Part shown: positions 7,033 to 37,557 of the stretch, one piece after another
Layout of the letters: every line of letters starts with the position of its first letter
Numbering within the stretch: the stretch's first letter is position 1
From: Hyphomicrobiales bacterium
GTDB lineage: Bacteria > Pseudomonadota > Alphaproteobacteria > Rhizobiales > JAJFHB01
Direction of reading: 5' to 3'
Assembly (NCBI GenBank): GCA_021775625.1
Contig: JAJFHM010000346.1
Location: 1 to 39,273 of the forward strand
Length of the DNA stretch: 39,273 bases
The notes under the pieces: generated by a model
Database searches by the model: none
The model's input: only the letters and a program-made list of their open reading frames with translations
Told to the model about the DNA's origin: nothing
Position numbers and translations under genes: made by a program

Positions 7033-7035
7033 GAT

Positions 7036-17402: not shown

Positions 17403-18365
17403 ATGATGTCTGCTGTGAAGAAAGTGGATAAGAAGGCGATTTATGAGGCTGCGGAGAAGCTCTCCAACTGGGGCCGGTGGGGCGATGACGATCAACTTGG
17501 AACGATCAATCACGTCACCCCACAGGACATTATCGCAGCTGCCGGGCTGATCAGAAAAGGCAAAGTCTTCGCCCTCGGCTTAGCCCTCGATGAGAAGATT
17601 CAGTCCGGACAGTTTGGCGGGCGCTGGAATCCAATCCACACCATGTTGGCGACGGGAACCGACGCAATTGCCGGCAACCAGGACATCGTGCCGAACCTGC
17701 GCTACGGCGACGATGCGGTCAACATGCCGTGCCAGAGTTCGACACAATGGGATGCCCTCGCCCACATCTTTCTGGATGACAAGATGTACAACGGCTACGA
17801 CGCCAAACTCGTTGACAGCAACGGTGCGCAGAAAAACGGCATTGAGCACATGCGGGACAAAATGGTCGGCCGGGGCGTGCTGCTCGACGTCGCCCGCTGG
17901 AAGGGCACCGACGCGCTTGATGACGGCTATGCGATCAGCAACGAGGACCTCGATCAGACTGCCGCTGCGCAGGGTGTCGAAATTTGCCGCGGCGACTTCG
18001 TCATCGTGCGAACCGGCCAGCAGGAAGCCTATATGGCAAGAGGCGACTGGGGCACCTATGCCGGCGGCGACGCCCCGGGTCTGGCGTTTGAAACCGCTTA
18101 TTGGATATACGAGAACGAGATTGCCGCTATCTGCGCCGACACCTGGGGCTGCGAGGTTCGGCCGAACGAAACCACCGAGGCCAATCAGCCGTGGCACTGG
18201 GTCGTGATCCCGAAGATCGGGATCTCGATGGGTGAGATTTTCTACCTCAAGGAACTGGCGGAGGATTGCGCCGAGGACGGCGTCCACGAGTTCTTTTTCT
18301 GCGCCCCGCCGATGCACTTGCCTGGCGGTTGCGGTTCACCACTGAACCCGCAGGCAATCAAGTAG
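17403..18365 (+). CDS. Cyclase family (kynurenine formamidase-like) metallohydrolase
   Basis: NWGRWGDDDQLGT, STQWDALAH, GRGVLLDVAR, GDFVIVRTG, GEIFYL, GSPLNP. Confidence 0.9.
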   Translation: MMSAVKKVDKKAIYEAAEKLSNWGRWGDDDQLGTINHVTPQDIIAAAGLIRKGKVFALGLALDEKIQSGQFGGRWNPIHTMLATGTDAIAGNQDIVPNLRYGDDAVNMPCQSSTQWDALAHIFLDDKMYNGYDAKLVDSNGAQKNGIEHMRDKMVGRGVLLDVARWKGTDALDDGYAISNEDLDQTAAAQGVEICRGDFVIVRTGQQEAYMARGDWGTYAGGDAPGLAFETAYWIYENEIAAICADTWGCEVRPNETTEANQPWHWVVIPKIGISMGEIFYLKELAEDCAEDGVHEFFFCAPPMHLPGGCGSPLNPQAIK

Positions 18366-21556: not shown

Positions 21557-21946
21557 CTACAGACCGGCCGCATCCGCTTCATCGGGCGCGAAATCAATGT
21601 GAATGTGGTTGGCGTCGCAATCGAACACGTTGATCTGCAGGATCCCGAAACCGGGAACGCGCACTGCTTCGTATTGAATTCCGGCTTTCTCGAGCCGGGC
21701 GACAAAATCCGCAAGCCCGGTCGCTGAGAGCGCGAAGTGCTCGATCTTCGGTTCGATCGAATCAGGCTCGTTTTCGACGCCAACCATGTGCACGACCGCC
21801 TGCTCTCCAACATACAACCATGCTCCCGGGAACGGAAACGGTGGCCGGGGTCCGTTTTCCATTCCGAGAATTGTGCAGTACCAATCCACCATGCCATCGA
21901 GGTTGGAGGTTCGCAGGTTCACGTGATCCAGGCTTTTCAATTGCAT
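21557..21946 (-). CDS. VOC/glyoxalase family protein
   Basis: LDHVNLRT, RPPFPFPGAWLY, IEHFAL, NHIHIDF; GGAGG RBS. Confidence 0.88.
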   Translation of the reverse strand: MQLKSLDHVNLRTSNLDGMVDWYCTILGMENGPRPPFPFPGAWLYVGEQAVVHMVGVENEPDSIEPKIEHFALSATGLADFVARLEKAGIQYEAVRVPGFGILQINVFDCDANHIHIDFAPDEADAAGL

Positions 21947-21959
21947 CTGTATACCTCCG

Positions 21960-22397
21960 TCAAGTTAGGGTCTGTTTGTATCGTGCATAGACGATACAGC
22001 CGATACCGGCCCCGACAAGCAAAAGACCGGCGAACTGCCATGGGCTGATCTGCTCCTTGTAAACCAGCCAACCGACAATTGTAGCAAGAGCAATTGAACC
22101 CCCGTAGACCAGCGGCGTCACGAACCCGACATTTCCCCCGATGCTGAAGGCGCGGGACAAAGCCATGATGAAAATAGCCACGCCGATGCCGGCGACGAGC
22201 GCCCACACGATACCCTTGGCGTTGTTTTCGCCCGCAAATGTGGCACCGGAATAAAGGAACAGGCCAAGCGGCACGAACGTTCCCAAGGCATTGACAATGG
22301 CTGCCACCAGATTTGAATCGGCGAACAGCGCGGCGCGGCTTATACCCACCAAGAACACGGCGTAGGCAACTGTGGCCAACAGAACGAGCCAATACAT
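21960..22397 (-). CDS. Small DMT/EamA-like membrane transporter
   Basis: About five hydrophobic segments; YKEQISPWQFAGLLLVGAG C-terminal pattern. Start at ATG 22397 after GAGGGGAG. Confidence 0.75.
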   Translation of the reverse strand: MYWLVLLATVAYAVFLVGISRAALFADSNLVAAIVNALGTFVPLGLFLYSGATFAGENNAKGIVWALVAGIGVAIFIMALSRAFSIGGNVGFVTPLVYGGSIALATIVGWLVYKEQISPWQFAGLLLVGAGIGCIVYARYKQTLT

Positions 22398-22481
22398 GAA
22401 ATCTCCCCTCAAGTGCCCTCAAATGATTTATCCAGGTCTATCAATGGTATCTCGAATTCGGACGCATCCAGCCCGGGCTTG

Positions 22482-23150
22482 TCAACGGCCAATCAAAAAG
22501 CTTCTGCACCCGGCAAGTGTGCGCCGTTGTTTGAAATCGATGACGTTGTCGGCCGGATTCTGAAGCGCATTGACGGCGCGCACATACAGCGGCAACGCGT
22601 GAGAATAGGCGTCATAGGGGCGCATCCGCGCCACCATCCAGTCAAGCTTGGCGCGGGCATCGGTGGCAGAATATTTGCCGGTTTGCACCCATTCATTCAC
22701 CAGCCAGTCCAATGACTCAAGGAACGACAGGGAGTCCGCGGCCTGCAGAATGTCCTCCTCTGGATTGCCTCCGATTTCGTGACGCAATATGAGGCTGCGG
22801 ACCTGGAGAATGAACGCCTCATCAGCCTTGTTGCCATCGCGAAGCCACTCCTCGACAACATCGGCGGAGCGCACCGAGTGGGCAAACAGGTAATCGGCAT
22901 CATCGAAACGATCCGGAGTACTGGTCGGACCCCCGGGGAAAAACCGTTCTGCGTCATGGACCAACGCGGCAAACTTCAATGCGTCCCCGGCTTTGCCCGA
23001 AATCTTCATCGCCCAGGCCCTGGTGCACAGCAGATGCTCAAGCTGATAAAACCCATCAAGCCAGTCAACTGCCGCCAACTCCAGGCTACTGAAAGTGGCA
23101 TCGGCGTAGCGGCCGGCAAGCTCGTCAGCCATAGTCGTATCGTCATCCAT
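22482..23150 (-). CDS. HD-domain (DUF4202-like) metal-dependent phosphohydrolase
   Basis: EH...AALVHDAER...AHS...RHEIGG...LQAADSLSFLE; start overlaps the Mo-subunit stop by 8 bp. Confidence 0.75.
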   Translation of the reverse strand: MDDDTTMADELAGRYADATFSSLELAAVDWLDGFYQLEHLLCTRAWAMKISGKAGDALKFAALVHDAERFFPGGPTSTPDRFDDADYLFAHSVRSADVVEEWLRDGNKADEAFILQVRSLILRHEIGGNPEEDILQAADSLSFLESLDWLVNEWVQTGKYSATDARAKLDWMVARMRPYDAYSHALPLYVRAVNALQNPADNVIDFKQRRTLAGCRSFLIGR

Positions 23151-26061
23151 CTGGGCTGGCCGGCATCGTGGTTGTCAGATGTTTGCCGTGCAGTGCGCGC
23201 CAGACAGTTTCCGGTGTTATCGGCAGCTCAGAAATCTCGACGCCGAAATCGCTCAGCGCGTCGCAAATGGCATTTGCGACCGCAGCGGCCGGTGGGATCG
23301 TGCCCACTTCGCCAACGCCGCGCACTCCAAACGTGGTCGTTGGCGACGGCTCCTCGGTGTGCAACAGCTCAATGGGCGGAACATCGGCAGCCATCGGCGC
23401 GAAATAGTCCATCATCGTACCGTTTATCAATTGCCCGGTTTCCGGGTCGTATCGCAGCTCTTCGTTCAGTGCAGCGCCCAGTCCCTGCACGACAGCACCG
23501 CGCACCTGCCCTTCCACAAGCAGCGGATTAATCTGCGTGCCGCAATCATGCACCATGATGAACCGCTCAACCGAAAATTCCCCGCTCTCGGCATCGACCG
23601 AAACGACCGCGGCCGCCGTGCCGAATGAAAACGCGGCCTCCGCAGGCTCGAAACTGGCAGAGGCTTCCAGCCCCGGGCTATCGCCTGCCGGTATCCCCTG
23701 CCCCAGTATGGCGCCGCTGAACACTCTCGACAGTGGCACTTGCCGTTCATGGTCGGATATGTGCCGGACCACCCGGCCATCGACAACAATTTCTTCGACG
23801 GGCGCCTCCAGAATGGCCGCACCCAAACGCAATGTCTTTGAGAGAAACTCTTCGCCCGCCTGCTTGATCGCGCCAGAGGCGGCAATTATCGTGCGGGAAG
23901 CAAAGGCGCCTGTGTTGAGCGGCGACGCAGCCGTATCGCCGGCATGGACATGGATGCAGTCAAAATCCACACCGAGCACATCGGCGCAGACTTGCGCAAA
24001 GGCGGTTTCGCTGCTCTGGCCAAACGTTGAAACACCTGTGTAAAGATCAACTCCGCCCGTCCTGTTGGCCCGCAAGGTAACGCTCTCGTGGGCGCCATAT
24101 TGCGAGCCCCGATGCGCCAGAAAACGGGCACTGGCGTAGCCTGTGCGTTCCACAAATGAGGCTAAACCGATACCTGCAAATCGCCCGTCCGGCCGCTGTC
24201 GGTTCTCGTTCAATCGGTGCGCAGAATAATCCACCGCATCTGCAGCCATTTGCAGTGTTCTCAAGTAGTCACCGCTGTCATAAATCACACCACTTGGCGT
24301 GGTCCAGGGCAAATCCTCCGGCGCCAGCATATTCTGTTGCCGCAGCATCAGTGGGTCGGCGTTGAGTTTGCGTGCCAGGCGATCGATGAGCACTTCAAGC
24401 GCGAAATTCACTTCCGGCTGCCCATAGCCGCGATAGGCTCCGATAGGCGTTCTGTTCGTCAACGCAACACTGCGTTCGACCGAGCCGTCGGCAACCTTGT
24501 ATGGGCCGGCGAACACCACGCTCGATAATTGCGCGGAACCAAACGAGGAGTTCCAACCACCGAGGTCGGTAGTGTACTTGTTCTTCAGAGCGACGATCCG
24601 GCCGTCATTTCGGGCACCAATCGTATAGTGATGCACCGCTCCTCGTCCGTGGGTGCTGGCGCGAAAAAACTCCAATCCGTCTTCGATCCATTTTACCGGA
24701 CGACGGGTGGCCATGGCGTGCAGGCAGGCCAGCACATCCTCGGGATAAACCCCAAGCTTCATCCCAAAGGCACCACCAACATCACTTGCGCTGACGCGGA
24801 TGCTCCCTTCATCCAGGCGTAAAGATTCCGCCAACTGCTTGCGGACCAGATGCGGCACCTGGGTTGACGAATGGACCATCAGGTCGCGGGCACCGGGACG
24901 CCAGGTAGCGATCACACCGCGCGGTTCCATGGGCAAAGGGCTGACGCGATTAACCCGAAACTGACCCGAGACCACGAGATCCGCATCGCTCAGCTGTTTC
25001 TCGGGGTCGCCACCGCGAACCTCACTGCGCGACAGAAGATTGGACGCCAGGACATCAGAATGCATCACCGGGGCGGTGTCTTCCAATGCGTCGAGCGGAT
25101 CGGACACATGTGGCAGGGGTTCGTACTCGATTTCGAGCAATTCGATCGCATCCTCGGCAGCTGCCCGGCTGCTTGCAGCAATGCTGACAACCGGCTGCCC
25201 CTCATAAGTCGCCCTTTCCTGCGCCAACGCATAGTAGGACAGCTTGGGGGCTCCAGGCACCGGGCGCAACACCGTCAACGGATCGCTGAGGTCGCGAACC
25301 TCGGCTCCGGTCAGTATGTGCTTGACGCCGGCCACTACTGCGGCCTTGCTGATATCGATCGACTTAATTCGGACGTGCGGAAACGGACAACGCGCAACGG
25401 CCATTTCGAGTTGAAGGGAGAATTGCACGTCGTCGACAAACTGGCCGTCGCCGCACAAGAGCCGGTCGTCTTCCTTGCGCGGCGGGCTCTGGCCGATGTA
25501 GCGATCGACTTTGCATCCGTCTTGAGCCTCCCGTGGGGGCAAGGGAACATGCACCGTCGCACTGTCGGCGGCGGAACCCTCAATGTCATCAGGGCAGCCG
25601 AGATACTCTTCGACGGCTCGCAATATGCCTTCGTACCCGGTGCATCGGCACAGCACGCCGCTAATTTCTTCGCGAATTGTTTGCCGCGACGGCGGTGGTG
25701 TCCGATCAGCAAGGCTCAGCGCCAGCATCAAAAAGCCCGATGTGCAGAAGCCGCACTGCACCGCATGATGTTTTTTGAACAGGCTTTGCAACCTGCTCAG
25801 TTGGTCGCCTTCGGCAAGAGATTCCACCGTGCGGACCACTGCGCCATCCAACTGAGCGGCCAACATGATGCACGACTTTATCGCTTGCCCGTCCACTAAA
25901 ACGGTGCACATGCCGCACACGCCCTGCTCACAGCCAACGTGAACGCCGGTCATGCCCTGACGATGACGCAGAAAATCCGCGGCGTGCATGCGAACAGGTA
26001 CGGTATCCTCGATTTCCGAACCGTTCAGCGTGACCATGATTTCGATCCGATTAGCCGTCAC
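23143..26061 (-). CDS. Molybdenum hydroxylase, fused [2Fe-2S] plus molybdopterin-binding subunit
   Basis: N-terminal GCEQGVCGMC..SC, QCGFC, CRCTGY; then RKEDDRLL, STQVPH, DVGGAFG, AYRGYGQPE, EGQVRG, RGVGE. Confidence 0.92.
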   Translation of the reverse strand: MTANRIEIMVTLNGSEIEDTVPVRMHAADFLRHRQGMTGVHVGCEQGVCGMCTVLVDGQAIKSCIMLAAQLDGAVVRTVESLAEGDQLSRLQSLFKKHHAVQCGFCTSGFLMLALSLADRTPPPSRQTIREEISGVLCRCTGYEGILRAVEEYLGCPDDIEGSAADSATVHVPLPPREAQDGCKVDRYIGQSPPRKEDDRLLCGDGQFVDDVQFSLQLEMAVARCPFPHVRIKSIDISKAAVVAGVKHILTGAEVRDLSDPLTVLRPVPGAPKLSYYALAQERATYEGQPVVSIAASSRAAAEDAIELLEIEYEPLPHVSDPLDALEDTAPVMHSDVLASNLLSRSEVRGGDPEKQLSDADLVVSGQFRVNRVSPLPMEPRGVIATWRPGARDLMVHSSTQVPHLVRKQLAESLRLDEGSIRVSASDVGGAFGMKLGVYPEDVLACLHAMATRRPVKWIEDGLEFFRASTHGRGAVHHYTIGARNDGRIVALKNKYTTDLGGWNSSFGSAQLSSVVFAGPYKVADGSVERSVALTNRTPIGAYRGYGQPEVNFALEVLIDRLARKLNADPLMLRQQNMLAPEDLPWTTPSGVIYDSGDYLRTLQMAADAVDYSAHRLNENRQRPDGRFAGIGLASFVERTGYASARFLAHRGSQYGAHESVTLRANRTGGVDLYTGVSTFGQSSETAFAQVCADVLGVDFDCIHVHAGDTAASPLNTGAFASRTIIAASGAIKQAGEEFLSKTLRLGAAILEAPVEEIVVDGRVVRHISDHERQVPLSRVFSGAILGQGIPAGDSPGLEASASFEPAEAAFSFGTAAAVVSVDAESGEFSVERFIMVHDCGTQINPLLVEGQVRGAVVQGLGAALNEELRYDPETGQLINGTMMDYFAPMAADVPPIELLHTEEPSPTTTFGVRGVGEVGTIPPAAAVANAICDALSDFGVEISELPITPETVWRALHGKHLTTTMPASPDG

Positions 26062-26131
26062 TGTCTCGCCTTATCGATTTCGAGCCGGACGACGATACGC
26101 CATCGATCCAGTCCCCCAGTCCGTTCACACT

Positions 26132-27157
26132 CTAAGAGGATGGCTGCATTTCCTTGACCACCACATCGCCGTCGATGACGATTGGCTCATCGTCGAGAAA
26201 AAGGCTGCAATCGCGCATTGGGATATCGAGGTGGCAGGCGGTGTCGTTGAGCCCGCCCAGCTCGTTGTTCGGACCGGTTGAGAACATCACATTCCCGTAA
26301 AAGGAACGCAGCTCCATCCCCATACCGCCGGGGAATTGCGTCAGTCCATGCCAATTGGCACGCTCGTCCAGCCCCCATCCAACATGCGACATGCCGTTGC
26401 CTCTGGGGTCTTTGAATGCGTCCATGTAGCTCTTGATCAGGTCGGCCTCGATCCCGCCGCGAATGTCTTGCACGAACCCTTTCTCGATCGTGTACGTCAC
26501 CGGCTCGCGCACATATGAGTTGAACGGCAAAAGCACATCGCCCATTCCGAGGACGATCTGCCCGTCAACACCATCATCGGCACCGCCGGTAAAGACGAAG
26601 CCTGCCGGCCAATGATCCCAGCGCCCCGGCTCATCCGTGTAGCCATATTCGCTAATGGTCGGATAGACGCCAAGTTTGTAAGTGATGTCGGTTCCGTGCG
26701 GGCTCGTAATCCGCATGTTTTTCGCCTTGGACAAAATTTCGGCACCCACCTCGACGCGTTCCCGGATCTCTTTTGACGGCATCAGCCTCGCCAATAGCGG
26801 CGCCGGTTCGACAGCGGTGAGAACACGCGCTCCGGCCGCCTGGATGGCCATTTGCTCAGGGCTGAACAAAAGGAATATGAGATCGACCACCATATCGGCC
26901 TGTTTGAGTGCCTCAACCGCTTCCGCGTTCTGGGCCAACTGCGAAATACCAACTTCCCAACTCCCCGATCCCGGCTGTGGTGTCGGCAGACGCATATGAT
27001 AAATCTTGGCGCCAAGTGTGCGGCCGGCATTCAAAAAGGCGTCGGCATAGTCCAGCCGCTCATCGCCCTGTGACAGCACGACGACACTCTCGCCTTCGTG
27101 AACTCCACTCATCTCGAGTTGAATTCGGCAAATTTCGTTGAGAGAATTTTGATCCAT
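26132..27157 (-). CDS. nicX: 2,5-dihydroxypyridine 5,6-dioxygenase
   Basis: LLFSPEQ, AVEP, EYGYTDEPGRWDHWPAGF, SHVGWG, FYGNVMFSTGPN, CHLDIP match NicX motifs including the His/His/Asp iron ligands. Confidence 0.88.
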   Translation of the reverse strand: MDQNSLNEICRIQLEMSGVHEGESVVVLSQGDERLDYADAFLNAGRTLGAKIYHMRLPTPQPGSGSWEVGISQLAQNAEAVEALKQADMVVDLIFLLFSPEQMAIQAAGARVLTAVEPAPLLARLMPSKEIRERVEVGAEILSKAKNMRITSPHGTDITYKLGVYPTISEYGYTDEPGRWDHWPAGFVFTGGADDGVDGQIVLGMGDVLLPFNSYVREPVTYTIEKGFVQDIRGGIEADLIKSYMDAFKDPRGNGMSHVGWGLDERANWHGLTQFPGGMGMELRSFYGNVMFSTGPNNELGGLNDTACHLDIPMRDCSLFLDDEPIVIDGDVVVKEMQPSS

Positions 27158-27190
27158 GATGCATATCTCCTTTAACGCGTCCTTTGGGTT

Positions 27191-28015
27191 CTACGACTTG
27201 CGGACACCCGGTAGCAGCGGAGCCAGGACGTCGAAAAATCCTTCGAAATTGTCCCACGGCACCATATGGCCGGCGCCGGGTACCGACAGAATTGGAATTG
27301 CCGGATTGGCCGCCGCTAAATCCGCTGCAGCCTGGGCAGGAACGACAGGGCTGTCCGCGCCGCGCACAAGTGTCGCCGGGGGTGCGATCTGCGTCCAGTA
27401 TTCGAAAAAGTCCTCGGTCTGAAACCCCTCATGGGTTTCCACAACCGCCGTTTCATCACAGGTGGCCAAAATATCGGCGCGCAGTTGCAACTCGCGCTCC
27501 GGCCATTTGGGGTAAAAGCGCCGCACCTGCTCCACCGTGGTTCCCTGCTGGGCTTCATGCAACTGCGTCAGAAAGGCCTCGCGGTTCGTGGGGTAAGGTC
27601 CACGCCCGGGCCCTGAAACGGGCGGATCGACCAAAATCAGGTGGCCATGCCCGTGCAGCGCAAATCCGACCGCATAGGCGGCCGCGATCCGCGCACCAAG
27701 TGAATGGCCGATAATCGTGGGAGCCCCCAGTTCGAGCGCCGAAACAATCCCGTCGACGTCCGCGGCATAATCGGCGAGCCGGTAGTTTCCCGACGCAGCC
27801 ACGGTCGTCTTCCCCCTTCCCCGCAAATCTGGAACCACGACCCTGAAGCCCATGTCCGACAAGGCTACAGCGATGAAATCTGCCGTTGCCGCCGGGCTGG
27901 TGATCCCCGGCAAGATCAAAATGGTGCCCCGTCGAGCATCACCATATTCCAGAAGATGATGGCTCAGACCGTTGGCCTGGATGGTGTGGGAACGTCCCGA
28001 AACGGCTATGCTCAC
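27191..28015 (-). CDS. nicD: N-formylmaleamate deformylase (alpha/beta hydrolase)
   Basis: PGITSPA, DLRGRG, GHSLG, DPPVSGPGRGPYP, AGHMVPWD; adjacent to nicX. Confidence 0.85.
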   Translation of the reverse strand: MSIAVSGRSHTIQANGLSHHLLEYGDARRGTILILPGITSPAATADFIAVALSDMGFRVVVPDLRGRGKTTVAASGNYRLADYAADVDGIVSALELGAPTIIGHSLGARIAAAYAVGFALHGHGHLILVDPPVSGPGRGPYPTNREAFLTQLHEAQQGTTVEQVRRFYPKWPERELQLRADILATCDETAVVETHEGFQTEDFFEYWTQIAPPATLVRGADSPVVPAQAAADLAAANPAIPILSVPGAGHMVPWDNFEGFFDVLAPLLPGVRKS

Positions 28016-28191
28016 GCGACCGCCTCCGCTTGCACCGGCAATGAGCCAAGGGCTAACCCTGCATCAGCAACCTCCGGGGCATGAAAAGTTGCCTCCCGCA
28101 CATTCCGCTCGGAATGTCGGCGCATCAGCTCCGGGATCTCGGTTTCCATCGTCGTGTTTGAACTGGGTACGATCAATCCGATGCGGTGCAT
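28012..28191 (-). pseudogene. maiA: Maleate cis-trans isomerase (MaiA/NicE) remnant with a large in-frame internal deletion
   Basis: Hand translation, 59 aa (below the ORF-track cutoff): MHRIGLIVPSSNTTMETEIPELMRRHSERNVREATFH-APEVADAGLALGSLPVQAEAVA*. GGGAGG RBS; the stop overlaps the nicD GTG. Confidence 0.85.
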
Positions 28192-28225
28192 TCTGTAATC
28201 CTCCCTGTGCTGTCTCCATCCCGCT

Positions 28226-28879
28226 CTAGCCAGCCAACTGGAACAGGATCATGAGTGAAACCATCAGCGTCGCCGCACTCAAGGCGGCACACACCTTCGC
28301 CCAGAACTCGACAGCGGGCGCCGCCGTGCCGCGGGTTCCGACTGACAGTGTCTCGAGCGCATCTCGGCCGCGGCCGGGACGGGATGCTGCCCCCGTCGTC
28401 GGGCTCGCCACCGGGTGCAACTGTGTCTCACCGCCCAACAGCGCTTGTTCGAGATTTTCGGCGAATTCACCGGTCACCCGGTCCGCCTGCTTCGCGATGA
28501 CCTTTTGCCCGACACTGCCCAGGGCGCCCGCCAACGCGGCCTCGCCTTCAACGATGACATGTGTGATCCGATCGCCTGCCGGCTCAATCATTACTGTACT
28601 TGCCACCCGAAAATTTCCGATCGCGCCGCGCACCGCCTTGCCGGTCGAAGTGAACTGGATCCGCTCTTGATGGACTTTGTCGCTGATGTGCACCCTGGAT
28701 TCGAAGGTTGCGCTGAGCGGACCCAAATTCTGCCTCACACGAACCGATAAGGTATTGGCATCGACGATGGAGACACTTTCGATCCCGGGTATGCACTCGG
28801 CAACCAGGGCCGGTTGGTCGAAGAAAGTCCAAACCTTCGAAACGCTTTCGTTCACATCAAACTGTTGACGAAATTTCAC
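28226..28879 (-). CDS. CoxG/SRPBCC subunit with C-terminal membrane anchor
   Basis: VWTFFDQP..VAECIPG, GALGSVGQKVI..QA..F; hydrophobic C-terminal helix. Confidence 0.85.
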   Translation of the reverse strand: MKFRQQFDVNESVSKVWTFFDQPALVAECIPGIESVSIVDANTLSVRVRQNLGPLSATFESRVHISDKVHQERIQFTSTGKAVRGAIGNFRVASTVMIEPAGDRITHVIVEGEAALAGALGSVGQKVIAKQADRVTGEFAENLEQALLGGETQLHPVASPTTGAASRPGRGRDALETLSVGTRGTAAPAVEFWAKVCAALSAATLMVSLMILFQLAG

Positions 28880-29751
28880 GACGACACCTCGCTGGCGGCG
28901 GCTGCGCGTAGGTCTCTAAGAGTGCGCCTGAGATGCACCGTAACCAGATGCGTCCGGTACTGCTCGCTCGCCCGAATGTCGGTCTGCGGAGAAATCTCTG
29001 TGCCGGCGATTTCCGCAGCTTCGCCGATGTCCCCGTCGGTCAGATCCGAACCCTCCAGCCGCGCGGCTGCCTTGATGGCAAGAACCGGAGTTTCATCCAC
29101 ACCGCCCAACCCGATCCGAATATCTTGCCACTTACCCGAAGCCGATCGATTGCCGCAGACAGCAACCGACATGACCGCAAAATCATTGTGCCGTCGACAC
29201 ACCTCGTAAAAGGCGAAATGATCCGGATGCTTCGGAAAGGTGATTTGGGTGACCATTTCGCATGCGTCGATGGCAGGAAAGTAAGAGCCTTCATAAAAAT
29301 CCGGCATCGAAATTTCGCGCGCACCGTTTGCGCTGACAACCCGCACGCGGGCGCCCAACACCAACGCACCCAGCGGCATTTCGGCGGTTGGATCGCCCTG
29401 AGCGAGGCTTCCGCCAATGGTGCCTCGAGCGCGAACCTGGCGGTCGCCGACCCATCGCACCATCGCCGCAATCAGGGGCAGGCGGTGGGCAATGACCGGT
29501 GACGTCTCGATCGTATTGTAGCGCAACAGGGCGCCGAGGACCGTATCGTCGCCGTCGACATCAACACCATCGAGATTGGGAACGTGGTTGATATCCACCA
29601 GCGCCGGCGGCCGCCACAGGCGCATATTCATCATCGGCATCAGGCTTTGCCCACCAGCGAGGATGCGCGCGTCTCCGGAATAGTCGTCCAGCAACCGCAG
29701 GACCTCCTCCACCGACGCGGCCTTGTGATAGATGAAGTCCGCGCTCTTCAT
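28876..29751 (-). CDS. Molybdenum hydroxylase FAD-binding (medium, CoxM-like) subunit
   Basis: ILAGGQSLMPMMNMR, RQVRARGTIGGSLAQGDP, DIRASEQYR. Start ATG 29751 overlaps the upstream TGA. Confidence 0.92.
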   Translation of the reverse strand: MKSADFIYHKAASVEEVLRLLDDYSGDARILAGGQSLMPMMNMRLWRPPALVDINHVPNLDGVDVDGDDTVLGALLRYNTIETSPVIAHRLPLIAAMVRWVGDRQVRARGTIGGSLAQGDPTAEMPLGALVLGARVRVVSANGAREISMPDFYEGSYFPAIDACEMVTQITFPKHPDHFAFYEVCRRHNDFAVMSVAVCGNRSASGKWQDIRIGLGGVDETPVLAIKAAARLEGSDLTDGDIGEAAEIAGTEISPQTDIRASEQYRTHLVTVHLRRTLRDLRAAAASEVSS

Positions 29752-30845
29752 GACTTCGAAGCGTCGGAGTTGGAAGCGGCGACCTTGACGCCCGACAATC
29801 GCGACAAGACGTGATCGACAGGTGATTTTGTGGCCGCGATCGGCCGGCTGGGTGATTTGCGGCTCCAGACCGTTTCGGGCCGGACCTGCAACACCCAAAG
29901 GTCGTCATCCGTCCCGATCGCCCACTCGATGTCCTGCGGCGCGCCACGGTCGGCCTCGATCCGTTTGCCCAGCTTTGCCAGAAACTGGATGTTCTCGTCG
30001 CTTAGACAGACCATCTCCTGGCGGGACGGCTCAATTGGCGCCAACCCGACCGTACCGGCGTCTGGTTTGAAGCGATACTCTTCGGTTTGCGTCGCGACTT
30101 GCCGCTTCAAAACATCAAAGGTCACCTTGTCGATGACGAACAGGCTTGGCGTGATGTCGCCCTTGACAACCCCCTCACCTAAACCCCAACACGCTTCGAA
30201 AACGATCTTGGAGCGGTCGCCGGTGAGAGGATCGAGCGTGAACATGACCCCCGCTGAGCGGGCCTGAACCATTTGCTGGACGCCGACGCACATCGCAATA
30301 TCACCCTGCGTGATCACGGTGTCTCCATCCCGCTGGTACGACAGGACTGTCTCGCTAAACATACCCGCCCAGCACATCCGCATATGCTTGAGCACGTCAT
30401 CTGCTCCCGAAATCCATAAGTAAGTCTCGTATTGGCCAGCGAAGCTGGCGCCCGCGAGATCCTCGGATTCACCGCTTGACCGGACGGCAACCGGCACGTT
30501 GGCGCATGCTGTGCGAACCTCCAATTCCGCATAGCTCTTTCGCACTGTTGCTTCCAGGTCGAGCGGCAAGTCTGCGGTCATAATCGTTTCGGTCAGATGG
30601 GCCGTTTCGGCCTGAATGTCAGCCAGGGCCAGACCGGGGACCGCCTGCCGCACACGCCTGGCCTCACCGACAAGTCCCGCAGCGTCCAGAAAGTCCCGAT
30701 ATGCCACGGTGGTGATGCCAAATCCCGGCGGCACCGCATAACCGGCCGCCATCGAGGTGGCCAGGCTCGAGAACTTGCCGCCCAATAGCGGATCCCCCGG
30801 CGCCGCGGCGTCGTCAAGCCATACGATGCGCGAAGCCGCGGTCAT
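29748..30845 (-). CDS. Stand-alone ATP-grasp (PPDK/PEP synthase N-terminal) subunit, phenylphosphate synthase beta-like
   Basis: LGGKFSSL, VPPGF, VAVRSS..ED...SFAGQYET, VQQMV, GLGEGVV, QDIEWA, LQVRPET; 365 aa with no other domains. Confidence 0.88.
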   Translation of the reverse strand: MTAASRIVWLDDAAAPGDPLLGGKFSSLATSMAAGYAVPPGFGITTVAYRDFLDAAGLVGEARRVRQAVPGLALADIQAETAHLTETIMTADLPLDLEATVRKSYAELEVRTACANVPVAVRSSGESEDLAGASFAGQYETYLWISGADDVLKHMRMCWAGMFSETVLSYQRDGDTVITQGDIAMCVGVQQMVQARSAGVMFTLDPLTGDRSKIVFEACWGLGEGVVKGDITPSLFVIDKVTFDVLKRQVATQTEEYRFKPDAGTVGLAPIEPSRQEMVCLSDENIQFLAKLGKRIEADRGAPQDIEWAIGTDDDLWVLQVRPETVWSRKSPSRPIAATKSPVDHVLSRLSGVKVAASNSDASKS

Positions 30846-32719
30846 TACCCCGACTTTTCAACTATGCGTACGAGCCCGACATTGCCGTCAACTTCGATAA
30901 TGTCGCCGGTCGAGATAAGTGTCGTGGCATACCCGGTTCCAACAACTGCGGGCAGGCCGTACTCGCGTGAGATAATGGCGGTATGGGCCATGATGCCTCC
31001 GACATCCGAGACGGCGGCAGAAATTTTCGGGAAGACGGGCGCCCAACTCGGCGCGGTGATGCGGCAAACCAGGATGTCGCCATCCTCGACTTCATAGAGC
31101 TGCTCGGTCGCGGTGATGACCTTTGCGCGGCCTTTGACCTTGCCGGCAGATGCCGCAACACCGCGCAACTGGTCGCTAGATGTCGTATCAACGCCAATCC
31201 ATTCATCGACCGTTTCCTGGGTGATGCCCCAAAGCATGATGGTGAGTGGTTCTGTAATCGTTTCGGGCGGCGTCCCAAGTGCCGGCGGCGGCGACCATTT
31301 CGCCAACACATCGCGAATGCCGCGCCGGCGTTCGATAATCGGGCGCCAGTAGATTTCGCCGCGCGATTGAGAGCCCGTCGCCCAGCCGATCAGCAGGTCA
31401 TAAAGCGCGTCGTAGATTTCATGACGATGCAGATAGAAAATATCTTCGCGATCGTCAAAGAAGTTGCGCGTGACGAATATGTCGCCCAATTCCCGAACCT
31501 TTGACCAGAAAATCGAATGGTGCCAGTGCTCCACATAAAAATTGTGGTCTTCGACAAAGGGGAACACCTTGCGGGTCAACGCGACCAGCCCGTCGAAGGC
31601 TTCGCGGTCCTCATCTGTTGGCAAGTGTTCGCGATACTCCGCGGTAACGCGTTCGCGCCGCGCGACGATCTTATCCAGCGGACGGCGCACGTCCTCACCG
31701 CGTTGCAACGCGGAGATGTAACCAGAAATCGCAGACAGCGGCAGCCGCAAATCGTCCATCCAGACCGGATCGGAATGCGTATATCCAGCTCCCGTTGAAT
31801 ACCAGAACCAGGGATCCTTCGCCGCTTCCAGGGCTTCCAGCCATTTTGGACCATTCTCGGCCTTGGCTATCGCGCCGAGAACGCTGTCAGGGGAATTTTG
31901 CCCCAAAATGACGTCGGCGACGTCCAGTTCGACGGCGAGCGCGGCCAGGCCACGCAACTCGTCGTCAGGCCTGAACAGCAAGATGTCGATACCCGACACC
32001 ATGTCCGTTATCGTCTGGTCGGTAATGCCAGGAAATGCGCTTTGGCAGAATTCGCGAAAAGTAAGATAGGCGCCGTAGCCCAGGTTGAGCATCTCGAAAT
32101 GGTAGGACCCCATCTCGAGCATATTCTCAATCATACGGCTGTATGAGGTCAAAAGATCGTAGGATGAATAAAGCCCCCGATGCGAGAAAACGTGCTTTTC
32201 GTGCTCGTATTCTGGCAACGGTTCGAATTCAATTGCCTTGAGCCGCTCGATGCAGTCCTTGGCTTTGTCTTTCCAGTTTTCGTAAATTTCGTCCCAATTT
32301 TCGAAATAGTGGCCGGCCCGAGACGCAAAGATCTCGCCTCGCTCGGCCAGTTTGTCAGGGTCCGTGACCGAATTGGGGCTGATATAGAGATAGCCGTTGA
32401 TGACACGGTGATCGATGCCCATCGCGGGCGGCACCGGCCAAACACGGTTCGACATCTGGCTGGCAGCAACCCACCAGTTCTCGGTCATTATGGTGTCGAA
32501 CGGATAGAGTGGCTCCGGATTGTGCATCCCGTCGAAAAACCAGAACTTCGATTCTTCCAGTTCCCGCCGTTCGGGGCTGATGTGCATGTAATAGGGATAA
32601 AGCTCCTGCCAGCCCGCGGCACCCTTCGGAGAGGCAATGTCGAATGGACTGGAGAAGCCGGATTTAGAGGTCGATGCTTTTGCATCGGGGGCCTTGCCGG
32701 AACTTTGATTATTGCCCAT
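30845..32719 (-). CDS. PEP-utilising phospho-His swivel-domain protein with large substrate-binding domain, phenylphosphate synthase alpha-like
   Basis: C-terminal LRGVAAS.G, GDILV, TAPSW, GGIMAHTAIISREYGLPAVVG, VDG; no pyruvate-binding barrel. Confidence 0.85.
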   Translation of the reverse strand: MGNNQSSGKAPDAKASTSKSGFSSPFDIASPKGAAGWQELYPYYMHISPERRELEESKFWFFDGMHNPEPLYPFDTIMTENWWVAASQMSNRVWPVPPAMGIDHRVINGYLYISPNSVTDPDKLAERGEIFASRAGHYFENWDEIYENWKDKAKDCIERLKAIEFEPLPEYEHEKHVFSHRGLYSSYDLLTSYSRMIENMLEMGSYHFEMLNLGYGAYLTFREFCQSAFPGITDQTITDMVSGIDILLFRPDDELRGLAALAVELDVADVILGQNSPDSVLGAIAKAENGPKWLEALEAAKDPWFWYSTGAGYTHSDPVWMDDLRLPLSAISGYISALQRGEDVRRPLDKIVARRERVTAEYREHLPTDEDREAFDGLVALTRKVFPFVEDHNFYVEHWHHSIFWSKVRELGDIFVTRNFFDDREDIFYLHRHEIYDALYDLLIGWATGSQSRGEIYWRPIIERRRGIRDVLAKWSPPPALGTPPETITEPLTIMLWGITQETVDEWIGVDTTSSDQLRGVAASAGKVKGRAKVITATEQLYEVEDGDILVCRITAPSWAPVFPKISAAVSDVGGIMAHTAIISREYGLPAVVGTGYATTLISTGDIIEVDGNVGLVRIVEKSG

Positions 32720-33116: not shown

Positions 33117-33135
33117 TGGTATTATGGTATACCAT
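33117..33135. promoter_or_regulatory. Putative GntR/FadR operator
   Basis: Perfect palindrome ATGGTATACCAT (33124-33135) plus half-site TGGTAT (33117-33122), between gntR and the catabolic operon. Confidence 0.55.
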
Positions 33136-33239: not shown

Positions 33240-33926
33240 CTAAGCATCGTCAAGCTCTTTGAGACGCTCCAGCGCCATGCTGCTGGACTTTTCGATGTGC
33301 GACATCATCAACTTTTCTGCCCGTTCGGACTTACCGGAAGCAATGGCATCGAGTACAGCAGTGTGCTCTTTAAGCGCTCTCTTGAGTGTCGCACTTGAAT
33401 ATTTGTATCTCGAACGATAGGTGACGGTTACCGCCAGCACCTGCCGCACCAGAGTCAACAATAGCTGGCTTCCGGCGGCCGCCGCGATGGCTTCGTGAAA
33501 AGCCAGATCCGCCTGCGCCTGTTCGAGTGATGTTCCATCGGTTCCCAGCCGCTGCTGCGCGGCCAGCGCGTCAGCAACTCTGTCGAGCCCCTGGCGGTTT
33601 TGAGCAAGCGCCGCGCTGGCCGCGGCATGGGCTTCAAGCACCCGGCGGACCGAAAATATCTGAGCGATATCGCCGTAGGTGACGCGCCGCACGCGGGCGA
33701 AACGCCCAGGCTCCAGATCGACAAGCCCTTCGCCCTGCAGCGTGAACAATGCCTCGCGCACCGGGGTCCGGCTTACGCCGAGTTCCTTGGCGAGTTCGCG
33801 TTCCCGCAGCGGAGAGCCGGGCGCCAATACACCGCCCAATATTGCCTTGCGCAGTACTTGCGCCACACCTTCGCTGGTGCGCATGGCCATCGGCCCGTCA
33901 ATCAATCCTCCCAGCAAATCCGCCAT
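33240..33926 (-). CDS. GntR (FadR/FCD) family transcriptional regulator
   Basis: LRKAILGG.LAPG..LRERELAKELGVSRTPVREAL; DLAFHEAI, EH..VLDAI, SHI. Start set at ATG 33926 after GGAGG. Confidence 0.93.
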   Translation of the reverse strand: MADLLGGLIDGPMAMRTSEGVAQVLRKAILGGVLAPGSPLRERELAKELGVSRTPVREALFTLQGEGLVDLEPGRFARVRRVTYGDIAQIFSVRRVLEAHAAASAALAQNRQGLDRVADALAAQQRLGTDGTSLEQAQADLAFHEAIAAAAGSQLLLTLVRQVLAVTVTYRSRYKYSSATLKRALKEHTAVLDAIASGKSERAEKLMMSHIEKSSSMALERLKELDDA

Positions 33927-34147
33927 TGGCGGCACCTCCAACGTCGTTCCCAACCAAAGCAGTGTTGTAAACGGTTCCGTCACATTAGCTGGGATGATTG
34001 ATGTTAAGCCAGCCGGTAATGTCGTTGGATGCAGAAAATTTCCTACTGTCGATACCGATTTCCTCCCTCAATCATTCAGCATGCGGTGTGGCTGTATTCT
34101 TGACTTCCACTCAGCTATTCACTCTTTCGCGCCAGTATCCCGAAAAA

Positions 34148-34869: not shown

Positions 34870-36192
34870 TTACCACTCCAGTGCCAGGACCCGCACCGGC
34901 GATGCCTCAGCATCTCTTAGATTCAGCGGCATCATCACGATGACCGGATGGTCACTGCCAAGTGCGCCCATGTTGCAAAGGTTCTTGAGGATGCACACGC
35001 CCCGTTCAAGCAACACGGCCTCAGCGTCCAATTGATCCTTTCGCGCAGATGCGGCGCCGAGCGCCTTTCTGCCCGCATCGAGCTCAAAGTCCGCTCCGAC
35101 GACCGTGTATCCCGCATCGGCGATCCACCTGGCCGCGTCCGCGCTGAGGCTGGGCGAAAACGCAAACCAGCCCGCATCGTCATAACACACCCGCTCGTCA
35201 AATCCGGATCTCAGCAGAAGGATGTTGTCTGAATGCACTTCACCGACCGCCGAAAGCAAGATTTCAGCACTGATGGTGCCCTCATTCGCCATACCTGTCA
35301 GGTCCGCGATGTCCGCCCGGCGCTCCAACTGCTCGCCCATGAAACCATCAATGCCGATGCCCGCACCAACATATTTCGGGGTCAGCAGATGGGTGTGAGA
35401 ATGTCCGGCGAATCGCACGCGCGTTTCCTGGACCGGATCACCCTGTTCAAACGACTTTGCCAGGCCTGTCGAGACCTTGCCCATCCAGTTCTCTGTGACC
35501 GGCAATGACAGATCGGTGATGCGTGGGTCGGGTCCGGGCCATTCGGTCAGTGCGACCGGACTTGCCGGACCGCCGTCGGCGCCGGGCAGGCGCAAGGGCC
35601 AGCCCACCAGAAAAACACGGTCCTGCTCGATGGCACTCAGTTTGACCACGTGCTCCAGATGCATGAGGTTGGCACCCAGCACAATCTGATGTTCGGTGAA
35701 TTCCGGATTGGTGACCAGCCTCCCGTCCATCTCGCGTGCCACGTAGTCCTGCGGAAAATCGATTACCAGCGCCCGGCAACCACGCTCGACAATCCACTGC
35801 GAGCCGTCCGCGTCGACATATGGCGATTTTTGCCAGTAGTCGCCAGTGCTGTGCGGGTGCACTTCGTGCAGATTGGAACGCAAAATCAGAAGGTCACCCG
35901 CCTTGACGTGGTCACCGCGTTGCTCCAGGACGTCGGCATTCACGGCACCCGATGGAACCAGATCCGACACGTCCACCACAGCGGCCTCGCCGCACAGTTG
36001 GTTCAGGTCGCAGTCGTCCAGCGTCCGGCCGCCATGGATCATGTGACACGGCGCGTCGACATGGGTGAACCCGTGTTTTGGCCAGTCAACCCCGGTTTCG
36101 GGCAAGCAGCCGTCTCCAGGGTCCAAATGCAACGTGTCGCCACTCCAACTCCAGTGTGAGCTGATCTGATTGCTCAGGCAAATAACAGCCAC
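34870..36192 (-). CDS. Tandem two-domain cyclase (KynB-like) protein; N-domain metal site intact, C-domain degenerate
   Basis: N-domain HGFTHVDAPCH and HLE; C-domain HSHTHLLTPKY and ILKNL. Start set at GTG 36192 after GGAGG. Confidence 0.82.
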   Translation of the reverse strand: MAVICLSNQISSHWSWSGDTLHLDPGDGCLPETGVDWPKHGFTHVDAPCHMIHGGRTLDDCDLNQLCGEAAVVDVSDLVPSGAVNADVLEQRGDHVKAGDLLILRSNLHEVHPHSTGDYWQKSPYVDADGSQWIVERGCRALVIDFPQDYVAREMDGRLVTNPEFTEHQIVLGANLMHLEHVVKLSAIEQDRVFLVGWPLRLPGADGGPASPVALTEWPGPDPRITDLSLPVTENWMGKVSTGLAKSFEQGDPVQETRVRFAGHSHTHLLTPKYVGAGIGIDGFMGEQLERRADIADLTGMANEGTISAEILLSAVGEVHSDNILLLRSGFDERVCYDDAGWFAFSPSLSADAARWIADAGYTVVGADFELDAGRKALGAASARKDQLDAEAVLLERGVCILKNLCNMGALGSDHPVIVMMPLNLRDAEASPVRVLALEW

Positions 36193-36262
36193 CTCGTTAT
36201 CCTCCGCGTGATTCATTGCCCTTGACAGCATTTGGTTGGTCCCTAATCATACGCCCGTCAGA

Positions 36263-37487: not shown

Positions 37488-37523
37488 ACTGGACGCCGCA
37501 GTGCTTTTAGAGCGGCGTCCAGT
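37488..37523 (+). terminator. Hairpin after the SBP gene (partial terminator or stabiliser)
   Basis: ACTGGACGCCGC (37488-37499) pairs with GCGGCGTCCAGT (37512-37523), followed by TCTTT. Confidence 0.6.
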
Positions 37524-37557
37524 TCTTTCGCGTTCTCATTCCGGTCCGGGCAACTTC

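Follow-up and report, generated by a model that had tools for sequence, protein, structure and literature searches.

Why would a gene cluster for the breakdown of a hydroxypyridine carry a kinase? The question is raised by a stretch of 39,273 nucleotides (nt) from a Hyphomicrobiales bacterium (GenBank assembly GCA_021775625.1, contig JAJFHM010000346.1; "the window" below is this whole stretch), which belongs to a metagenome-assembled genome that is 61.6% complete. Eight closely packed genes on its minus strand, all intact and spanning 22482-32719, encode a split dikinase (proteins of 624 and 365 amino acids, aa), the subunits of a molybdenum (Mo) hydroxylase, two enzymes of the NicX and NicD types and a protein of the HD superfamily, as the initial annotation of this DNA had listed them. 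The set is more than a chance grouping, since several of the genes overlap and the set is found again in dozens of loci of other genomes. Our answer, to which we give a probability of about 60%, is that the operon encodes a pathway of the 3hpd type, in which 3-hydroxypyridine (3HP) would be turned into 2,5-dihydroxypyridine (2,5-DHP) and the ring then opened by the maleamate route (NicX, NicD), and in which 3HP would be O-phosphorylated, the ester hydroxylated at C6 and the product dephosphorylated by the HD protein. Within this chain our confidence is higher for the initial phosphorylation and lower for the final dephosphorylation.

The 624-aa protein has a single Pfam domain, the PEP-utilizers mobile domain (residues 545-615), and Pfam found no PEP/pyruvate TIM-barrel domain (PEP-utilizers_C) in it, in keeping with the earlier description of a dikinase that lacks a pyruvate domain. 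It scores 822.6 bits against NCBIfam PRK08296.1-5 (cut-off 578). The histidine that the initial annotation had picked out in the string AHTAII is real: it is His579, within SDVGGIMAHTAII, where SDVGGIMAH fits the T/SxxGGxxxH phospho-histidine motif reported as common to two-component dikinases (Dexter et al. 2025, PMC12167813). An AlphaFold2 model of the protein (mean predicted local distance difference test score, pLDDT, 69) matches rifampin phosphotransferase 5fbt over 502 columns (Foldseek, E 1.3e-15); pyruvate phosphate dikinase (PPDK) and enzyme I match the same model over only about 120 columns, those of the swivel domain. A substrate domain of the rifampin-binding type is described for the large subunit of these dikinases (PMC12167813). 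Along 100% of its length the large subunit is 44.9% identical to the PpsA-type protein encoded beside ppcBDAG on plasmid pAZKH of Azoarcus KH32C, and it is 45.2% identical to a Cre-type protein of Rhodococcus ruber and 43.8% to an Hpe-type protein of Rhizobium leguminosarum. Its 365-aa partner is 38% identical to the PpsB-type partner of Azoarcus (E 5e-85) and 41% to the CreI-type protein of R. ruber (E 2e-76). The two-subunit architecture of phenylphosphate synthase, recognised at the outset, is borne out by these alignments, by which the pair is related along its whole length to the two-component aryl dikinases PpsAB, CreHI and HpeHI. The account of these three given by Dexter et al. describes them as two-component small-molecule dikinases, about 45% identical among themselves, all of which phosphorylate phenolic hydroxyl groups, and adds that HpeH and PpsA on their own move phosphate from an aryl phosphate to another phenol (PMC12167813); the word hydroxypyridine has 0 occurrences in that paper.

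The place of the window among relatives comes from a survey in which one genome per species was scanned with the 624-aa protein; 584 relatives were obtained and 78 loci kept (numbers preceded by L are our handles for loci). The window proteins were searched in these 78 loci, a match requiring at least 35% identity and at least 50% coverage, and many of the loci end at contig ends. The loci were split by the identity of the large kinase subunit, 68 of them standing at 55% or above and 10 below. Among the 68, a homolog of the ATP-grasp subunit was found in 66, of the flavin adenine dinucleotide (FAD) subunit in 60, of CoxG in 54, of the HD protein in 48, of the Mo subunit in 45, of NicD in 39, of NicX in 36 and of the GntR regulator in 32; among the 10, the ATP-grasp subunit was found in 8 and each of the other seven proteins in none. 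The kinase pair adjoins the FAD gene in the same order in related loci. Two actinobacterial loci (L068, 6051-11854; L078, 2-4459) each hold two copies of the large-subunit gene, in tandem or nearby.

A tree of the large subunit was built from 75 rows (the window and 74 loci) with a midpoint root only; five loci with a stop inside the match, Azoarcus included, and three with low coverage were left out. The window falls within a 65-row clade (Shimodaira-Hasegawa-like approximate likelihood ratio test, SH-aLRT, 99) that contains all the Mo-linked loci and the loci of named 3hpd carriers. Outside this clade stand Acidimicrobiia-type rows with one Cre-type row, and a pair of Thermomicrobium and Hpe-type rows that may be a long-branch join. 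The carriers are strains listed as such in the preprint on Ensifer adhaerens HP1, and the window proteins are 44-75% identical to those in their loci; for the large kinase subunit the range is 70-76% (73% in Pusillimonas caeni KCTC 42353, 75% in Salinicola peritrichatus JCM 18795), with Pseudonocardia ammonioxydans and Blastococcus DSM 46838 in the same group. These loci also hold homologs of the ATP-grasp, FAD, CoxG, Mo and HD proteins. Further named carriers among the related loci are P. oroxyli and Geodermatophilus sabuli. None of the 257 plasmid records matched was that of HP1, and orthology is therefore read through the strains that the preprint lists and not from the HP1 proteins themselves. 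By this route the window operon is, on sequence, an ortholog of the HP1 3hpd cluster, a similarity that the initial annotation had already named.

What is known of that cluster in HP1 gives the kinase its interest. The 3-hydroxypyridine dehydrogenase HpdA1-4 is reported to comprise Mo, iron-sulfur (FeS), separate SRPBCC and FAD parts, all four of them needed, and the hpdA genes to adjoin orf9 (PPDK-like), orf10 (phosphoenolpyruvate (PEP)-utilizing) and the maleamate-pathway genes hpdB-E, with orf7 encoding a GntR regulator (Wang et al. 2020, bioRxiv 10.1101/2020.01.08.898148). In the whole-cell experiments that the preprint describes, hpdA1-4 alone gave no conversion of 1 mM 3HP in strain ZM04, hpdA1-4 together with orf9/orf10 gave stoichiometric 2,5-DHP, and an HP1 knock-out of either orf9 or orf10 did not grow on 3HP (10.1101/2020.01.08.898148). 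The PEP-utilizing and PPDK-like proteins are implicated in the activity of HpdA, as the initial annotation had stated; the mechanism was left open by Wang et al., who speculated, with reference to CreHI and phenylphosphate synthase, that orf9/orf10 make an intermediate (10.1101/2020.01.08.898148). It is in E. adhaerens HP1 only that the requirement for the kinase genes, the product 2,5-DHP and the need for four hydroxylase parts have been shown.

In the window, the nearest solved relative of the 972-aa hydroxylase protein is quinoline 2-oxidoreductase (Qor; 1t3q_B, E 2.6e-150), and Glu918 is the counterpart in the alignment of the Glu in the Qor sequence GMGES, which we take to be Glu743, the catalytic base. 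The 2Fe-2S and Mo parts of the 972-aa protein share one open frame, joined by a 33-residue linker without a stop codon; they are separate genes in 48 of the 48 related loci in which both could be judged, and the single chain may be a true fusion or may stem from an assembly error in the metagenome bin. The Mo subunit looks otherwise canonical, with the catalytic Glu kept as Glu918. A C-terminal hydrophobic stretch is visible in the translation of the CoxG protein, and the SRPBCC subunit of HP1 is reported as separate, essential and provided with a transmembrane segment (Wang et al. 2020, bioRxiv 10.1101/2020.01.08.898148).

The HD gene is a conserved partner of the 3hpd-type cluster, and this is a useful addition of the present analysis. 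An HD homolog occurs in 39 of the 45 related loci that carry the Mo subunit; it immediately follows the Mo gene where the locus is proteobacterial and CoxG where it is actinobacterial. Of the six loci without it, five (all but L048) were checked genome-wide: two have an HD gene at, or 3.3 kb past, the edge of the fetched region, and one has it on another contig. In the reciprocal test an HD alignment was run against metagenome contigs and 80 loci were kept. Forty-one of these measure 5 kb or more, and 35 of the 41 have one or more partner genes. The HD gene follows a close Mo gene at a distance of no more than 400 nt in 33 of the 80 loci, and a CoxG gene in one, 34 in all. Among 400 other genomes of the window's own phylum none has a close HD homolog (six weak matches, 31-37% identity), so the cluster is rare in that phylum, and nothing more follows from the count. 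From the order Mo-HD-GntR in many loci, and with orf7 a GntR gene, orf8 of HP1 is probably the HD gene.

The HD protein itself is recognised only faintly by family models, scoring 20.3 bits for Pfam HD (cut-off 22) and 23.4 for DUF4202 (cut-off 35.1), both below. H39, H65, D66, H91, H124 and D139 are invariant in 18 homologs and form the six-ligand, two-metal HD pattern. An AlphaFold2 model (pLDDT 92) finds its best fold matches (VIA) in the HD hydrolases 2pq7 (Z 13.7, root-mean-square deviation 3.6, 156 aligned) and YpgQ (Z 12.4, root-mean-square deviation 3.8, 163 aligned), scores to be read with the reminder that the mere arrangement of helices can bring helical folds to a Z of about 13. 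Next come small alarmone hydrolases, YedJ and cyclic-nucleotide phosphodiesterases; Foldseek agrees weakly (E about 8e-3), and the best hit of a sequence search of solved structures had E 0.42. There are 891 homologs, and the names among the 120 listed are only "hypothetical", "HD domain-containing" and "DUF4202". On the predicted model and its conserved residues, the 222-aa protein is one with the HD-phosphohydrolase fold and ligand pattern.

The association extends to a second, divergent type of operon. In 19 of the 80 metagenome HD loci the HD gene stands beside ATP-grasp and/or FAD genes only 28-41% identical to those of the window. L151 (59-7511), a full example annotated with Pfam, begins with the large kinase subunit and GntR, which are followed by a cyclase-family protein, a short ATP-grasp protein, HD/DUF4202, FAD and Mo, and the same type is found in L137, L139, L143, L156, L159, L161 and others, with proteins 26-44% identical to the window's. 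The trio of kinase, HD protein and Mo hydroxylase has therefore been kept across a deep divergence.

The proposed relay would run in three steps. The ATP-grasp subunit would present adenosine triphosphate (ATP), His579 would be pyrophosphorylated and lose the gamma-phosphate, and the beta-phosphate would pass to the 3-OH of 3HP, the products being pyridin-3-yl phosphate, adenosine monophosphate and inorganic phosphate. The membrane-tethered Mo/FeS/FAD/CoxG hydroxylase would then act on C6 of the phosphate ester with oxygen from water, and the HD protein would hydrolyse 6-hydroxypyridin-3-yl phosphate to 2,5-DHP and inorganic phosphate. We infer 3HP as the phosphoryl acceptor, the ester as the substrate of the Mo enzyme, the HD protein as the phosphatase, and a benefit of the phosphorylation, which may lie in a lesser donation of electrons into C6, in a handle for binding, or in trapping within the cell. 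The electronic rationale, a phosphate that would serve as "protecting group", was that of the initial annotation.

Several observations weigh against this scheme. We know of no xanthine-oxidase-family enzyme that takes a phosphate ester. In the experiments set out in the HP1 preprint no phospho intermediate was detected (10.1101/2020.01.08.898148), and a literature search of PMC and bioRxiv turned up no publication on a pyridyl phosphate in the 3HP pathway and none that settles the role of orf9/orf10. For the HD protein, no HD-family gene at all was found in two of the five cluster genomes checked genome-wide. No replacement phosphatase was found in the six HD-less loci among 21 unassigned open reading frames (ORFs), 10 of which have no family at all and many of which are probably spurious in this high-GC DNA. 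Close homologs (58-63% identity) also occur in unrelated contexts, so the HD family is not exclusive to this operon. The preprint moreover describes a construct without orf7-orf8 that still gave stoichiometric 2,5-DHP in ZM04 (10.1101/2020.01.08.898148); if orf8 is the HD gene, then the HD protein, or a dedicated phosphatase, is not essential in whole cells. Neither does the Cre pathway lend the HD protein a close parallel. By BLAST the window HD protein has no significant match to either of two HD proteins of an R. ruber cre-type locus, and by hhalign its match to the one at the creD position is weak (E 0.005, probability 6.9%), with the ligand columns aligned. The two are not detectably of the same family, so that the parallel extends only to function and to the superfamily. 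Among the HD homologs in other settings, those of L106 (1212-1847) and L121 (2751-3521) have genes for polysaccharide biosynthesis, DUF6880 or CheB as neighbours, and neither a kinase nor a Mo gene is visible nearby.

For the last step an alternative offers itself. The phosphate could be removed by unspecific phosphatases, or transferred back to fresh 3HP by the large subunit, while the HD protein does its work elsewhere, in nucleotide or signalling hydrolysis or in chemistry of the oxygenase type, some six-ligand HD proteins being diiron oxygenases. Such a division of labour would suit the active construct without orf7-orf8, the two cluster genomes without an HD homolog, the close homologs in unrelated contexts, the ability of HpeH alone to transfer phosphate between aryl substrates, and the nucleotide hydrolases among the fold neighbours. 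It leaves unexplained the tight two-way linkage (39/45 and 35/41 loci), an HD gene that overlaps the Mo gene by 8 nt and adjoins kinase and hydroxylase genes in the second operon type, and the dedicated phosphohydrolase that the Hpe and Cre relays each possess, and we hold it rather doubtful. A variant that we think unlikely treats the phosphate as a recycled handle, which the large subunit would move, via His579, from the hydroxylated product to fresh 3HP; ATP would only prime the cycle, the HD protein would be a release valve, and the kinase/HD/Mo trio would let water-dependent Mo hydroxylases attack electron-rich hydroxy-N-heterocycles generally. HpeH and PpsA on their own exchange phosphate between aryl substrates, the HD gene is apparently dispensable in HP1 and the trio recurs at 26-44% identity, all of which would be compatible with this variant.

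Other explanations keep the ester away from the hydroxylase, or dispense with it. 3HP might be phosphorylated solely to hold it in the cell and to keep an inward gradient; the HD protein, or some other phosphatase, would then release free 3HP, and only this would be the substrate of the Mo enzyme. Scavenging and trapping are what Dexter et al. propose for HpeHI (PMC12167813), the same idea appears in PMC9618137 (PNAS 2022), and the missing phospho intermediate of HP1 would fit. Yet a phosphate put on and taken off ahead of the chemistry would be a futile cycle at a cost of two ATP equivalents, and in the one relay tested in vitro (Hpe) the enzyme that follows the kinase accepted nothing but the phospho form. 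The failure of hpdA1-4 to convert 3HP supplied at 1 mM would, besides, be hard to put down to poor uptake, the molecule being small and neutral or zwitterionic, and this explanation strikes us as improbable. It is very improbable, in our estimation, that the pair phosphorylates or otherwise activates a hydroxylase subunit or cofactor and that 3HP is never phosphorylated. The large subunit appears from its model to carry a small-molecule domain of the rifampin-binding type, it is 44-45% identical in full length to the proteins of Pps-, Cre- and Hpe-type loci, whose characterised relatives phosphorylate a phenolic OH, and a small-molecule ester would better account for the conserved phosphohydrolase partner, even if the swivel domain is common to protein-phosphorylating systems such as enzyme I of the phosphotransferase system and no small-molecule intermediate has been detected. 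There is, lastly, only a small chance that the substrate is another hydroxylated N-heterocycle that funnels into 2,5-DHP. The HP1 cluster is the only one tested so far, identities of 44-76% to related loci leave room for a shift in specificity, and the window has extra local genes for an EamA-like transporter and a VOC protein; against this, NicX and NicD in the operon fix 2,5-DHP as an intermediate, and the large subunit sits inside the 65-row clade (SH-aLRT 99) with the named 3hpd carriers.

If the Mo enzyme does take the ester, it would be, to our knowledge, the first hydroxylase of the xanthine-oxidase family known to act on a phosphorylated substrate, and the pathway would be the third aerobic one with a transient phosphate tag, after Cre and Hpe. 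The phosphorylation would explain the result of 2020 that HpdA is inactive without two "PEP-utilizing" proteins, and the relay would assign a function to widespread "hypothetical" proteins (PRK08296 and DUF4202-like HD proteins). With the HD gene as a specific third enzyme, the question of 2020 would become testable with three purified components. The pathway is relevant to the breakdown of pyridine-derived pollutants. The relay is a plausible idea and not a new one: the initial annotation had presented an anaerobic-style activation in an aerobic pathway as the novelty, whereas phosphorylation is already in print as a speculation of Wang et al. 2020, and aerobic precedents exist in Hpe, a proven relay, and in Cre, with the same kinase and a phosphohydrolase.

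The features of the operon and its surroundings are collected in Table 1.

Table 1. Genes and sites of the 3hpd-type operon and its flanks (positions in the window)
Feature	Position	Strand	Assignment and support
VOC/glyoxalase-family protein; local accessory	21557..21946	-	Glyoxalase E 5.7e-08
Small membrane protein, weakly EamA-like, 150 aa; local accessory	21960..22412	-	EamA E 5e-05
HD-superfamily DUF4202-like protein, 222 aa; proposed aryl-phosphate phosphohydrolase	22482..23150	-	fold, ligands, linkage
Fused 2Fe-2S + molybdopterin subunit (HpdA2 + HpdA1), 972 aa	23143..26061	-	Fer2, Fer2_2, hammerhead, MoCoBD_1, MoCoBD_2
NicX, 2,5-dihydroxypyridine 5,6-dioxygenase, 341 aa	26132..27157	-	PDB 7cn3 E 9.6e-94, residues 8-336
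N-formylmaleamate deformylase (NicD/Nfo type), alpha/beta hydrolase	27191..28015	-	Abhydrolase_1; PDB 4l0c "Deformylase" E 1.3e-46
CoxG/SRPBCC subunit (HpdA3 type), 217 aa	28226..28879	-	COXG E 6.7e-16; C-terminal hydrophobic anchor
FAD subunit of Mo hydroxylase (HpdA4 type), 291 aa	28876..29751	-	FAD_binding_5, CO_deh_flav_C (Pfam)
ATP-grasp dikinase subunit, 365 aa	29748..30845	-	orf9 / PpsB / CreI / HpeI type; PPDK_N E 3.9e-84
Large dikinase subunit, 624 aa	30845..32719	-	orf10 / PpsA / CreH / HpeH type; substrate-binding + swivel domain
Perfect 10-bp palindrome TGGTATACCA; candidate GntR operator	33125..33134	.	read by eye
GntR/FCD-family regulator, directly upstream of operon, same strand	33240..33983	-	GntR E 4.4e-18, FCD E 4.7e-24 (Pfam)

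Between the genes of the two kinase subunits the overlap is 1 nt, between the stop of the ATP-grasp gene and the start of the FAD gene 2 nt (ATGA), between the FAD and CoxG genes 4 nt and between the Mo and HD genes 8 nt. The FAD reading frame is open over 28876-29898, and its start is most likely the ATG at 29751, which forms the ATGA with the kinase stop and agrees with where the alignments of homologs begin. The 341-aa NicX protein has no Pfam match; the NicD-type gene adjoins NicX in the window and in related loci. Genes of the NicF and NicE types were not found in the window, and the 61.6%-complete source genome has ten matches to the isochorismatase family elsewhere.

The gene list of the initial annotation stands for the conserved genes and needs trimming at its downstream end. 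An ORF of 161 codons at 21937-22422 is rich in Arg and Cys and looks spurious; the other frame, 21960-22412, is the likelier gene. Its product has several hydrophobic stretches and an EamA score of 24 bits, under the cut-off of 28.2, and is possibly a local transporter; it has no tblastn match in 82 genome and plasmid loci and 80 metagenome loci. The VOC gene has no homolog at E <= 1e-10 in any of the 78 related loci. As these two genes lack counterparts in related loci, the conserved system is taken to consist of 22482-32719 together with the GntR gene at 33240-33983.

In several metagenome loci the GntR gene directly follows the HD gene. In the window, the palindrome TGGTATACCA lies within the 520-nt region upstream of the kinase gene, 400 nt from the kinase start, and we regard it as a candidate operator for the GntR protein. 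It overlaps a promoter-like match (33149-33121) from a scan that gave fewer promoter-like sites than its shuffles did; promoter and terminator scans of the region did no better than shuffles, and a repeat search upstream of the kinase gene found no inverted repeat, the arms of a 10-bp palindrome being too short for that search.

Further afield in the window there are three "putative cyclase" (PF04199) genes (17403-18365, 34870-36231 and 37501-38898). The same family is represented inside the second-type operon L151, where it might act as a formamidase. The regions 81-2513 and 4753-9117 contain the large subunit (810 aa) of a second, unrelated Mo hydroxylase and a hydantoinase A/B pair, whose B subunit has a C-terminal domain resembling acetone carboxylase gamma.

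Compared with systems already described, the window operon is nearest in composition to 3hpd of HP1, with which it shares the Mo, FeS and FAD parts, the separate SRPBCC/CoxG subunit, the PEP-utilizing/PPDK-like pair, maleamate genes and GntR. It differs in the fusion of its FeS and Mo parts (seen in 0 of 48 related loci), in the placing of NicD and NicX between the CoxG and Mo genes, and in having no NicF and NicE types in the window. With Qor the hydroxylase shares FeS and FAD partners and the conserved catalytic Glu; unlike Qor, HpdA needs a kinase for activity (from the HP1 data), has a separate, membrane-anchored CoxG and presumably takes a phosphate ester. Rifampin phosphotransferase resembles the large subunit in its rifampin-binding and swivel domains; it is, however, a single chain with its own ATP-grasp domain, its identity is only about 22% and its substrate is an antibiotic. 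Phenylphosphate synthase PpsAB(C) of the anaerobic phenol pathway of Thauera and Azoarcus is a two-subunit dikinase with the same His motif. The Azoarcus KH32C plasmid pAZKH encodes PEP-utilizing, PEP/pyruvate-binding and CBS proteins directly before ppcBDAG, the phenylphosphate carboxylase genes, whereas the window lacks both the CBS-domain third subunit and the carboxylase genes; its pair has a Mo hydroxylase and an HD protein for partners and falls in a separate clade, in a tree from which the Azoarcus row is absent.

The Cre pathway of Corynebacterium glutamicum (CreHI, the P450 system CreJEF, CreG, CreC and CreD) has in common with the window a kinase of the same family, an oxidation and a phosphohydrolase, and it is aerobic. 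Its oxidiser is a cytochrome P450 that acts on a methyl group, unlike the ring-acting Mo hydroxylase. A cre-type cluster on a Rhodococcus ruber plasmid (L083, 5077-15327) comprises a P450, both kinase subunits, SDR, ferredoxin, reductase, HD protein and aldehyde dehydrogenase, and the gene at its creD position carries the annotation "HD domain protein" (Pfam HD E 4e-09); a second HD-domain gene lies upstream, beside an IclR regulator. The cre gene run is given as creC, creD ("phosphohydrolase"), creE, creF, creG, creH, creI and creJ (PMC7764795). Kinase pairs are found in still other company on two plasmids: in Rhizobium leguminosarum (L081, 8980-18139) with biotin carboxylase genes, a HAD hydrolase and an acetoacetate-CoA ligase, an Hpe-like arrangement, and in Thermomicrobium roseum (L082, 9025-17501) with accC and a three-subunit Mo hydroxylase, without CoxG or HD genes. 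The Hpe pathway of Rhodococcus rhodochrous GD02 differs from the window in its middle enzyme, a biotin carboxylase, in its phosphatase, which is of the NagD/HAD type, and in its substrate, a hydroxyphenylethanone. It has the same two-component dikinase family, and there the relay of phosphorylation, transformation and dephosphorylation is proven: HpeHI is reported to phosphorylate, HpeCBA to take phospho forms only, and HpeD to dephosphorylate the carboxylated product with a strong preference over the unreacted phospho-substrate (PMC9618137).

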